Below the pieces are notes generated by a model, which saw nothing but the letters and a program-made list of their open reading frames with translations, was not told where the DNA came from and did not search any database. A DNA stretch of 64,000 nt from an uncultured Verrucomicrobiae bacterium (GTDB lineage: Bacteria; Chlamydiota; Chlamydiia; Chlamydiales; Rhabdochlamydiaceae). The stretch is taken from assembly GCA_963818965.1 (NCBI GenBank), contig CAWFUG010000009.1, forward strand, positions 256,001 to 320,000, read 5' to 3'. This document shows positions 12,010-18,170 of this stretch, piece after piece. A program made the position numbers and the translations under genes. Numbering within the stretch: position 1 is the first letter of the stretch; each line of letters opens with the position of its first letter.

Positions 12010-13810
12010 ATTCCAGACAGATCATCAGCACCCCATCTCCAATAGAATAGATTGTTTTCCCAGCTATTTGCTGCTTCTCGATTTTTGCGGTGGGTAGATA
12101 GCCTGATTTCAGAAGTAATTCATAAAGAATATCTTCTTGAGACGCCTTGGAATCGATATGAGGGATATGTCCTTCAAGCTTCAGGAGCAGTTCATGTACA
12201 GTTATTTGGGAAGTCGGTTCCCATATCTTGAAGTTGGATTTATCGAGTTTTAGGACTTTGAAGCCGAGATCGAAATTTGCTTGAGTTCCTACTTCCTGCT
12301 TAATTTTGTCGATCACTCGTTCGATTCTAGCTTTTCCGATGTCAGCAATCGTTTTAAATCCGGCCTTGAATGTCTCAGATTCTGGTGGGCATGGTTCTGG
12401 AAGTTGGACCATAACGAATTTGCGATTGCCATTGTCTTCGACATTTATATCAAATACGGCCTGCGCAGTTGGACAGGACCCTGAAAAAAAATCACAAACT
12501 ATATCTTGATTCTTAGTCAGTAATATCAAAAGATGTTTGATTAGCTTCGATGGTTTGGGATAAGGGAAAATATCTTGATTGCCAAATAATTCTTCTAATT
12601 CTATTCGTGCTGCTTGCGTATCCGGTAAATTTTTAAGAACAGATTTAGAAGATTGATAATCAACAAATTTTTTCGAGTAAAGCTTGCCGTTTTCTTTAAA
12701 GAAAAATTTTTCGATTTGCTGACCTTTGGTATCAAACACTTTTTTCCCAGACAGCCAGTCAAGAATCATATTTTTCATAGTCCAGCCAGCAATCAGAGTT
12801 ACTGGTTTTGCCAAACGACCTTCTTTAAAAATAAGGTCATCAACAATTTCTATACTTTCAGACCCTTCAATTCTTCCATTTAAAATTTTATCTTCACCTT
12901 CATATTCAATCCCAGCCGGAAAATTGATAGGAGACGCAGGATGTCTTGCATCAACTTTCTTATTGCAACGTTCAATGGAATGTTCAACATTATCCGACTT
13001 ATAAAATTGATTTAGACAAGTTTTGTTTTTTGCATAACCAAGTATATATTCGTGAGCTCGTGAAATATGGCCCGCATTAATACCTCTTGGTAATTCCCAA
13101 ACAAAAGGTGTAAGAGCATTTTCTTCGCCAAAAATCTCATCGCACATTTTTTTTAGATTTGTCATTTCGTTATCATCAATAGAAATAAAAATTACTCCAT
13201 CTTCGCGAAGTAAATTTCTTGCTAGATAGAGGCGAGGATACATCATATTCAGCCACTTAGTGTGAAAACGGCCTTCATTAGGAGTATTTGTGGAAAATTT
13301 CTTTCCCTTGTCATCAACCAAACCAGCATAAGCAAGATAGGTGTCGAGAGATTCTGCATAGTGATCTGGGTAGATAAACTCCTTTCCAGTATTGTAAGGA
13401 GGATCGATATAGACCATCTTGACTTTGCCGTAGTAGGACTTCTGAAGAAGCTTTAATACTTCAAGGTTGTCACCTTCGATAAAGAGATTTTCAGTAGTAT
13501 CAAAATTAACAGATTCTTCTCGGCATGGCTTAAGAGTTGCAAGGGATGGTTGCTGGATAATCTTTAGGCATTCCTTTTTTCCAGGCCAATCCATTCCATA
13601 ACGTTCTTTACGGCCTTCAAAAAGATCACTAAAAGTTCCAAGCTCAGCCCTTAACTTTTCAAAATCAATGGACTCAACCAATCTTCCTTTTTCATTTAGG
13701 GTTTCAGTAAAAACAGAAGGAAAAAGAGCTTTGAGCTTAGCTCTATTTTCAGTGCCAACATCCCTGGACTCAAGAGAAACCTTTTCTAGTTCGGTTTGGG
13801 ATGTGTTCAT
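12010..13810 (-). pseudogene. mod: Type III R-M Mod-like adenine methyltransferase, 3'-truncated by the IS
   Basis: NLFIEGDNLEVLKLL, IDPPYNTG, YPKP, DFFSGS motifs in beta-class order; frame runs into the IS after ...LMICLE. Confidence 0.85.
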
Positions 13811-14601
13811 TTGGCCTCCTGTAACTGTTGTTGCTTTATTTTTACTTGCTTAAGACTCTCTAGTTCTCGCTCAAATGAAATTTCTTCGATATCGTCTCGA
13901 GCTAGAAAAAGCATTCCTCCGCCACCCATCGTTGTAGGATTTATTGCTTTATTTTTCTTGCTGAGATTGTGAAGGTGTAGAGCTGTAAGTTGCTGAATCC
14001 TATCTTTATCTTCTTTTCGTAGCTTCACGATTAATTGTTGGATATATTCAAAGATCATTTTTCCGTATGCAAAAGCCTCATCTTTAGAAGGTAAATAGCC
14101 CTCATGGATAACGTTGTTTCTAAATTCGCTACATTTGAGAGATGAGGTAATTTTTTGATCGGGAAAAATTGGGGGACATTCCTTGAATCTCTTTAGATAT
14201 AGAAAGATGAAAGCCCCTAATTGGCGCTCAGATTGCTTTTTTATACTTTTCCACGCCATTTCAAAGCCTTCTGGTAACGAATCTTCCAGAGTAAATAGTT
14301 TGATGCAAAACTCATAAAAACGCTCTAATGCTTTAGCAAAGGCAAAGGTAGACTCTGCATAGTAGCCATCAAGTAAGGCCAAGGCTCCAATTTGGAAATG
14401 AATTTCAAAAGGAAATTGCTGTAGACAGACTATTGTTTTATGCCCATTTTTGCATGATAACTCACACGTTCCGTCTCTTAAATAATCAGAAAGCAGAACC
14501 AAGGAGGGGGCTGTTGCAAATTTGGTCATACGATCACGGCAAGATAGACAATTTATCCAATCAAACCTATTTTCTGCTAAAACTGGGACGTCTTGAGTCA
14601 T
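13807..14601 (-). CDS. Zn-ribbon plus HEPN-like domain protein
   Basis: CxxC...CxxGH N-terminus, helical body with ALERFYE and RNNVIH (RxxxxH); ATGA overlap with mod. Confidence 0.6.
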   Translation of the reverse strand: MTQDVPVLAENRFDWINCLSCRDRMTKFATAPSLVLLSDYLRDGTCELSCKNGHKTIVCLQQFPFEIHFQIGALALLDGYYAESTFAFAKALERFYEFCIKLFTLEDSLPEGFEMAWKSIKKQSERQLGAFIFLYLKRFKECPPIFPDQKITSSLKCSEFRNNVIHEGYLPSKDEAFAYGKMIFEYIQQLIVKLRKEDKDRIQQLTALHLHNLSKKNKAINPTTMGGGGMLFLARDDIEEISFERELESLKQVKIKQQQLQEAK

Positions 14602-17445: not shown

Positions 17446-18170
17446 CCGAGCACACCATTTGCGGCAAGCCGATAGGAACAAAGGCTGCAAGTCGGATTGG
17501 ATTCTGGGGGTTGGGCTGTGGTTAGTGTGGAGTGAATTTCAAGTAATTTAGGCTCAATCCAGCTATCATCGCCAAGATAAGGGATGACCGATATCTCGAA
17601 TTTTAGGCATTCGTCAAATGCAGGGACGTCCTTCTTGCCATTGCAATAAACAAAATAGCCTGTAGGAGAAACTGTAAATCCGTTCATTCTGAATAGCCAT
17701 TGGTAAATTTCCATTTGCCTTTTGTAGCTAATTTGCCAGTCTGCATCTAAGTTGATTTCACCAGCTTTACTGGTCGCCTTATAGTCCACGATGATCAGTT
17801 CTCCAGAAGGAATGATCCAAACGTCATCAATGGCTCCTGTCACTAAAAATCGAGTCGTTTCGTGTAAGTAGGAAATGCCCTTCAGATTTTTTCGCCATTC
17901 ATCAAGTTTTTCATGTTGAAAAGGGATTGCATCAATTTTATGTTTGATCATCAGCGGATGGGCTTCGCCTTTTGCTCGGTAGAAGTCGAATTCTTTTTTC
18001 AAGAGATGGTCAACAGCAGAGTTGAGGTTGAACGGAAATCCTCCAGGTTGCGCAACTCCAAGTTTGCGATCGAGGTAGAAGCAAAAGGGACATTCACAAA
18101 AAAGCTCGATCTTTGACCGACTTAATTTGAATGGTTTTGTGTCTTGTGGATCAAAGCCCTTTCTTTTCAT
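17442..18170 (-). CDS. PD-(D/E)XK nuclease, Cas4/AddB-like
   Basis: LSRSKI..F..CPFCFY, GAIDD, IVDYK, QMEIY, C-terminal CSLC; ATG 18170 preferred. Confidence 0.8.
   Translation of the reverse strand: MKRKGFDPQDTKPFKLSRSKIELFCECPFCFYLDRKLGVAQPGGFPFNLNSAVDHLLKKEFDFYRAKGEAHPLMIKHKIDAIPFQHEKLDEWRKNLKGISYLHETTRFLVTGAIDDVWIIPSGELIIVDYKATSKAGEINLDADWQISYKRQMEIYQWLFRMNGFTVSPTGYFVYCNGKKDVPAFDECLKFEISVIPYLGDDSWIEPKLLEIHSTLTTAQPPESNPTCSLCSYRLAANGVLG

Follow-up and report, generated by a model that had tools for sequence, protein, structure and literature searches.

In type III restriction-modification (R-M) enzymes, Mod methylates one strand of the host's sites and the complex Mod2Res cuts unmethylated DNA. 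Murray et al. 2021 describe, from more than 500 genomes, a group of such systems, that of Eco86II and BspHIV, in which a conserved helicase-like ATPase is encoded 5' of mod, and they report that this ATPase is not required for methylation and was absent from partially purified, active Eco86II (PMC8259958). The same layout is described for EcoR22I, in which a mobile element carries mod-res together with an SNF2 helicase related to DrmD; there, mod and res by themselves were enough to restrict lambda and to kill the cell when Ocr was sensed (bioRxiv 10.1101/2023.04.06.535777). Here we analyse a locus with the same kind of ATPase in a 64,000-nucleotide stretch of DNA (the window; positions 256,001 to 320,000 of contig CAWFUG010000009.1, assembly GCA_963818965.1) from an uncultured bacterium of the Rhabdochlamydiaceae, where four minus-strand genes between 12010 and 18170 encode a Cas4/RecB-like nuclease, an SNF2-family ATPase, a HEPN-fold protein and a type III Mod. 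We find that the locus is a remnant copy of an SNF2-associated type III R-M system, and it is probably best read as a decayed mobile operon with an SNF2-Mod-Res core, a swappable HEPN gene, a companion nuclease, and a loss of res linked to an insertion sequence (IS).

The arrangement that an earlier note had read from the letters of the window, four co-oriented and tightly coupled open reading frames (ORFs), is exact. The nuclease gene (17442-18170, minus strand; 242 amino acids from its ATG) overlaps the SNF2 gene (14611-17445, minus strand; 944 amino acids) by an ATGA at 17442-17445; a 9-bp gap (14602-14610) leads to the gene of a 264-amino-acid zinc-ribbon-like and HEPN-fold protein (13807-14601, minus strand), and a second ATGA at 13807-13810 joins the latter to mod (12010-13810, minus strand; native part 600 amino acids), with translational coupling spanning all four. 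The gene identities given at that time, and the type III-like nature of the whole, also hold: the nuclease matches PF12705 (51.6 bits, cut-off 22), the SNF2 protein matches the SNF2 and Helicase_C profiles, and the methylase matches the N6_N4 methylase profile and the PADLOC model MTase_III (600.6 bits).

The SNF2 protein is the part of the locus that ties it to the published group. Its motifs DEVGLGKT (61), DEAH (161), TATP (193) and QRIGR (532) are intact, a Pfam scan detected no nuclease domain in it, and over residues 3-944 it is 46% identical (E 4e-250) to an SNF2 protein encoded 5' of mod-res in Escherichia coli NCTC86 (NZ_CP019778). Since this is the sole such match in that chromosome, we infer that the NCTC86 locus is Eco86II, so that the Eco86II/BspHIV type (PMC8259958) has a homologous ATPase and the same order ATPase-mod-res, although its mod in NCTC86 has about 1040 codons whereas the Mod studied here is of a kind about 640 amino acids long. 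From 456 relatives of the SNF2 protein we kept 75 loci from many phyla, and the core was counted in the 54 of these with at least 7 kb downstream (the 21 shorter ones were dropped). Mod lies downstream of the SNF2 gene in 53 of the 54 and a Res-type helicase likewise in 53, with both present in 52; the three clusters of Res proteins bear ResIII domains. The conserved unit is SNF2-Mod-Res, which is already in print (PMC8259958; bioRxiv 10.1101/2023.04.06.535777). Mod follows the SNF2 gene directly in 30 of 53 loci, and in the other 23 (one of them a rearranged locus) a gene stands between the two, for which Pfam supplies the names Fic, PLD, SMC-like and RloC-like ATPases, AIPR, GmrSD, YhcG, Schlafen and OLD, besides unknowns. 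Within the host phylum the SNF2 family is present in 12 of the 400 genomes searched. We also observed an SNF2 subfamily of 16 loci (L023, L024, L028, L031, L033, L035 and others) in which the SNF2 gene is followed by a methylase of about 1100 amino acids and a Res-like helicase of 1084 amino acids; six loci have McrBC genes.

Compared with the Eco86II/BspHIV type, the present copy lacks res and the tail of Mod, and it carries the HEPN cargo and the upstream Cas4-like nuclease. The truncated Mod keeps motif IV (DPPY) at 136 and motif I (DFFSGS) at 440, in that order and with a variable, predicted target-recognition domain between them (12440-13139, minus strand; GC content 0.345; replaced by other sequence in sibling elements), which is the beta-class arrangement. 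Its native part ends at residue 600, leaving it 55 residues shorter than two intact relatives, and the frame enters an IS5-family element and stops at 11951. This element (10874-12009, plus strand; terminal inverted repeats; NF033579, 300 bits against a cut-off of 140; transposase 10962-11954) bounds the operon's left edge at 12010 and occurs once in the assembly. On its other side lie the last 90 or so codons of an otherwise missing protein of about 786 amino acids (10597-10873, minus strand), 73% identical to the C-terminus of P0241, its closest relative, which has 786 amino acids. As the IS flanks thus come from two different genes, mod and that of the 786-amino-acid protein, a deletion of several kb linked to the IS is indicated, and it is likely that this deletion took res together with the Mod tail. 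A simple insertion of the IS, which a match of 8 of 9 letters between the flanks, resembling a target-site duplication, might have suggested, was rejected because the flanks run into two unrelated genes. The family of the 786-amino-acid protein (P0241, P0242) shows two CxxC pairs and, by eye, a restriction-nuclease-like motif near its C-terminus, and it has no match in Pfam, NCBIfam or PADLOC.

No res follows mod in the island, although SNF2-associated type III systems carry it there, and searches of the 87.85%-complete assembly with three Res profiles that we built, the Res protein of the closest complete sister element (L010) and PF19778 detected none. PF04851 had 10 matches in the assembly, one of them the SNF2 protein itself, and the Res profiles matched none of these. 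In all four public runs examined, the match of the contigs breaks off precisely at 12010, and the sequence with which X4, one of these runs, continues past that point is the intact Mod tail of sister L010. Restriction has most likely been lost in this genome. In EcoP15I the C-terminal domain of Mod is described as touching Res, with dimerisation through other domains (PMC4490356), and as the lost piece lies within the Res-contacting domain, Mod here may or may not still methylate; by this analogy, some residual methylation is possible. A more elaborate role for the truncated Mod, as a decoy that after the loss of res senses anti-restriction proteins and releases the HEPN toxin, would have a precedent in Ronin with HsdMS, and it would suit the intact frames of the nuclease, SNF2 and HEPN genes and the retained catalytic motifs of Mod. 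We nevertheless hold it to be very improbable, as the break is seen in this genome only, none of the listed contigs of the four runs crosses it, relatives of the HEPN gene elsewhere lie away from any Mod, and the presence of an IS where the break lies suggests that the damage is recent.

The best profile matches of the SNF2 protein are to DrmD (PADLOC, 725.6 bits), and a DrmD-like SNF2 protein adjoining an adenine-type methylase is also what DISARM class 1 contains. It is nonetheless extremely improbable that the locus belongs to DISARM class 1, whether as a variant or as a remnant. The NCBIfam score, 727.8 bits for NF038318, falls below the cut-off of 950 (NF038317, at 276.7, is below 610), the methylase is a type III Mod, and the SNF2 loci of relatives continue into Res. 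The earlier note had stated that DrmA, DrmB and DrmC are missing, and neither NF038325 nor PF09369 found a DrmA or a DrmB-type domain in the assembly, nor was either present in the island; a PLD gene of the DrmC type was absent from the island ORFs scanned, no DrmC model having been run on the genome. Hma (HmaABC) is likewise described as an operon of SNF2 and methylase genes and as an insertion hotspot for other defence genes (PMC11232893), but neither the NOV_C nuclease borne by HmaA nor the ATPase HmaC was detected here: NOV_C had no match, the HmaA model gave 183 bits, and the methylase fits MTase_III and not HmaB. SWI2/SNF2 helicases have also been linked, in a different context, to R-M operons containing MORC (PMC2292703). 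The exact string of four genes matches no named model, as the earlier note had suspected, and no HEPN or Cas4-like gene was seen in the account of EcoR22I (bioRxiv 10.1101/2023.04.06.535777).

The gene in the SNF2-Mod slot of the present locus is a predicted HEPN RNase, and its earlier label, Zn-HEPN-like, is borne out by an invariant motif and by the fold of its model. Among 233 homologues found, 67 were aligned, and in these C50, H54, R161, N162 and H166 are invariant; the motif RNxxxH, here R161-N162-x3-H166, is present in 120 of the 120 homologues among those listed. The structure model has a mean predicted local distance difference test score (pLDDT) of 87.7, and its best fold match is 4nqf (Z 9.5, root-mean-square deviation (rmsd) 2.9 over 121 residues), with the top five matches (Z 8.2-9.5) all HEPN-titled entries or structural-genomics proteins; such a Z is middling for a helical protein, and the motif bears much of the weight. 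The protein has no match in Pfam, NCBIfam or PADLOC, while nine of the 67 aligned members match HEPN_RiboL-PSP weakly (best E 0.015), and an atlas lookup gave clusters without a name, plus a single lead, DUF4145, at 0.83. PrrC and RloC are HEPN RNases that guard R-M systems. The present gene resembles theirs in being an RxxxxH HEPN gene inside an R-M operon, but it differs in having no ABC-ATPase sensor domain, in its small Cys/His-rich N-terminus and in its want of a family match.

How firmly this gene and the nuclease belong to the SNF2-Mod core can be judged from where else they occur. The HEPN gene is found in none of the 75 SNF2 loci and the nuclease gene in three, all close sisters. In 5 of the 400 genomes of the phylum the HEPN gene is present, and one of the four other carriers, G033, shows SNF2-HEPN-Mod; at 80 metagenome loci, of which 27 were at least 6 kb long, no R-M gene lies within three genes of it. 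In the closest complete sister, L010, which reads integrase-nuclease-SNF2 (95% identical)-Mod-Res with one gene inserted before Mod, the HEPN slot holds an unrelated gene of 425 amino acids (12865-14142 of that contig), with no Pfam match and no PADLOC match at E 1e-35. The HEPN gene is, as its neighbourhoods indicate, swappable cargo in the SNF2-Mod slot and not a fixed partner. Just upstream of the sister element the same contig carries a second mod-res locus and then a second copy of the nuclease family (L010:216-5307), and the genome to which it belongs (G111) has four nuclease copies.

The earlier note had proposed a type III-like system with two extra nuclease layers, and these counts largely refute that reading, since neither gene is a regular neighbour of SNF2; what survives of the proposed neighbourhood is that the order nuclease-SNF2-HEPN-Mod recurs in near-identical siblings. 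In genome G033 the SNF2 gene (98%) and the HEPN gene (97%) are followed by a Mod with a different middle, and single contigs of X2 and X4, from two studies, carry nuclease-SNF2-HEPN-Mod at about 97% and about 95%, with 655 other letters in place of the Mod middle at a joint at 12439/13140. The four genes in this order are a genuine allele, belonging to a single element that has been spreading recently. If the four genes, with Res, formed one dedicated layered system in which SNF2 couples restriction to a DNase and an RNase, then their translational coupling, the shared order in G033, X2 and X4 and the exchange of the Mod middle while HEPN is kept would be accounted for, and the longest contigs of a HEPN homologue (89%) and a nuclease homologue (80%) are equal in size (15309), which is a hint in the same direction. 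Yet every recurrence observed at the DNA level has 93-97% identity, and together they represent one clonal element family, L010 replaces HEPN with an unrelated gene, the nuclease accompanies many R-M types, and five sister elements keep the integrase and nuclease while bearing a type I R-M system instead; together with the counts at SNF2 loci, this makes the layered system quite unlikely.

The nuclease itself belongs to the PF12705 family of Cas4/RecB-like PD-(D/E)XK nucleases by profile, motifs and fold. Its predicted catalytic residues are E60, D115, D129-x-K131 and Q152-xxx-Y156, with E60, D115, D129, K131, Q152 and Y156 invariant in the alignment, as is M1, and four conserved cysteines (C27, C30, C228, C231) form two CxxC pairs, a candidate Fe-S or zinc site. 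The model (pLDDT 92.5) has a fold like that of Cas4 (7mi4; Z 12.1, rmsd 4.1 over 182) and RecE (3h4r; Z 11.5, rmsd 5.9 over 192), common also to AddB and AdnAB, and no sequence relative with a solved structure was found. A CRISPR Cas4 it is not, with 23.5 bits against TIGR00372 (cut-off 65) and no cas1 in the 87.85%-complete assembly. Nucleases that fold like Cas4 but are encoded away from CRISPR loci, and that are frequent in bacteria with small genomes, were described by Hudaiberdiev et al. 2017, who report solo-Cas4 genes beside R-M genes in DPANN and UvrD-Cas4 (PF12705) fusions adjoining type III mod-res, and propose for the fusions an ancillary role in recombination (PMC5704561). The present protein differs from these in standing alone at 242 amino acids with no helicase fusion, in scoring below the Cas4 cut-off, and in the two-plus-two spacing of its cysteines. 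A protein of 753 amino acids elsewhere (L150:8408-10669) contains the nuclease-like region twice in tandem.

The neighbours of the nuclease gene suggest a wider association. It is present in 42 of the 400 genomes of the phylum; of 52 other matches 40 loci were retrieved, 39 of them with a scorable ORF, and in 30 of these 39 an R-M-type gene lies no more than three genes away. The systems concerned are of types I, II, IIG (MmeI-like) and III, together with Hma and BREX, and they stand upstream of the nuclease gene, downstream of it or divergently; these six kinds of methylase-based system set the family apart from the published contexts of solo-Cas4 and PF12705 nucleases. At 36 control integrase loci with no nuclease (4 of the original 40 were too short and were dropped), R-M genes were found at none with the same profiles and at one with PADLOC. 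All six retrieved elements that combine the integrase with the nuclease have an R-M system next, five of type I and one of type III. On viral contigs, R-M genes lie within three genes at 8 of 13 nuclease loci (one near-duplicate of 14 was left out), and some loci there also adjoin CBASS, Gabija and Thoeris genes. A quick tree of the nucleases, from which four broken, fused or partial sequences were excluded, has three supported clades, each mixing several R-M types. By inspection, no motif search having been made, the upstream regions of the nuclease genes share no operator beyond close sisters. The nuclease profile (E<=1e-40) matched nothing in 301 genomes of the phylum of G401 and nothing in five SNF2-bearing genomes, and it matched one plasmid of 72,556. 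From this distribution, the nuclease is likely a general companion of restriction systems and not a layer special to the SNF2 type III system, an association with precedent in related families (Hudaiberdiev et al. 2017, PMC5704561).

What such a companion might do is suggested by the parts of an intact element, in which Mod would mark the host DNA and Mod2Res would cut unmarked DNA, as is established for type III enzymes. The SNF2 protein probably translocates on DNA and frees or resets protein-DNA complexes for the enzyme, which would be able to do without it; the nuclease probably degrades restricted DNA from the cut ends; and the HEPN protein, by analogy with PrrC, probably acts as an independent means of abortive infection that kills or stalls the cell when restriction fails. 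More broadly, and tentatively, the PF12705 family could be a restriction helper indifferent to type, a Cas4-like exonuclease that is set before, after or opposite systems of types I, II, IIG and III, Hma or BREX and destroys cut foreign DNA before repair or recombination. Here it would have been joined by an SNF2 motor and by a zinc-HEPN protein acting as a suicide RNase, all on a mobile element whose R-M cassette and specificity domain would be exchanged among chlamydia-like bacteria. The same nuclease might instead be an exonuclease of recombination or repair, which either mends the cuts that restriction makes in the cell's own DNA or helps R-M cassettes to be exchanged and thereby marks the site where they land. 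The fold shared with RecE, AddB, AdnAB and Cas4 suits such a role, as do the near-identical nucleases of one element, which stand before cassettes of either type I or type III, the exchanged Mod middles among siblings and the recombination role proposed for PF12705-UvrD fusions beside type III R-M (PMC5704561). Neighbourhood data cannot separate this role from an anti-phage one, however, and the viral loci beside CBASS, Gabija and Thoeris fit defence as well as a hotspot; we regard it as rather doubtful.

Several points weigh against the reading of a decayed operon with an exchangeable cargo and a general companion nuclease. Nine of the 39 nuclease loci have no R-M gene, the control loci were scored downstream of integrases only while the nuclease loci were scored on both sides and partly with profiles made from their own neighbours, and the genomes carrying the nuclease are kin and so not independent. 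The nuclease family comprises 8000 or more proteins, many of them labelled as coming from Patescibacteria, and the neighbour counts cover the host phylum and viral contigs. The incomplete assembly bears on the missing res, the few HEPN metagenome loci that reach 6 kb bear on the cargo, and the recurrence of the gene order in siblings, SNF2-HEPN-Mod in G033 and all four genes in X2 and X4, means that the combination has spread and must at the least be tolerated.

The locus is broken, and the group to which it belongs has been described but not explained, so that it lends itself poorly to experiments. The function of the SNF2 ATPase, in question since Murray et al. 2021, could be addressed more compactly in the intact sister L010. 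The nuclease represents a very large uncharacterised family with strong links to all types of restriction, and a general step that follows the cut is thereby suggested. The combination of nuclease and HEPN genes with SNF2-Mod was not found in print, which is weakly shown since differently worded papers escape such searches. The phylum carries mobile, actively reshuffled defence islands. Chlamydia-like bacteria are intracellular and usually regarded as poor in defence systems.

That the operon sits in an integrase island, as first described, is confirmed by the surroundings. The island, about 11 kb long, lies between a tRNA-Met(CAT) gene, the integration site (19644-19718, minus strand; ARAGORN), and a partial repeat of that gene (8662-8716, minus strand; 55 bp, 87% identical to the 3' part of the tRNA). 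Its first gene encodes a tyrosine integrase (18410-19477, minus strand; PF00589, E 1.7e-31), relatives of which occur in 132 of 401 genomes of the phylum (E<=1e-80). A tandem 10-bp repeat with a spacing of 11 near the tRNA end, and similar words at the other end of the island (8834-8823, 19542-19562), are likely arm-type sites of the integrase. In two loci elsewhere (L261:10437-14234, L266:2196-5981) the integrase lineage has a protein of about 1260 amino acids with weak similarity to SNF2 in place of the R-M cassette, and a second tRNA-linked integrase element in the present genome (C11:174639-182036) carries a 563-amino-acid helicase and an ORF of 810 amino acids. Scans for promoters and terminators in the island gave numbers near those of shuffled sequence (18 against 18.6 and 17 against 11.5, respectively).

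The last genes of the island are an AbiE-like type IV toxin-antitoxin pair on the plus strand, made up of an AbiEi-type antitoxin or regulator (9009-9770; PF09952, E 3.8e-9) and a nucleotidyltransferase, the predicted toxin (9767-10546; PF12281, E 1.6e-11). In front of the former, repeated and inverted copies of a word of about 11 bp (8971-9026) include a perfect palindrome at 8988-9009, and this cluster is likely the autoregulatory operator of the AbiEi gene. Elsewhere in the genome (C8:290005-291072) lies another AbiEi-like gene, which is interrupted and shares about 61% identity with the island copy, and just outside the island a small HNH-like ORF with a hydrophobic C-terminal tail (7502-8038) has weak PADLOC matches to ZorE.

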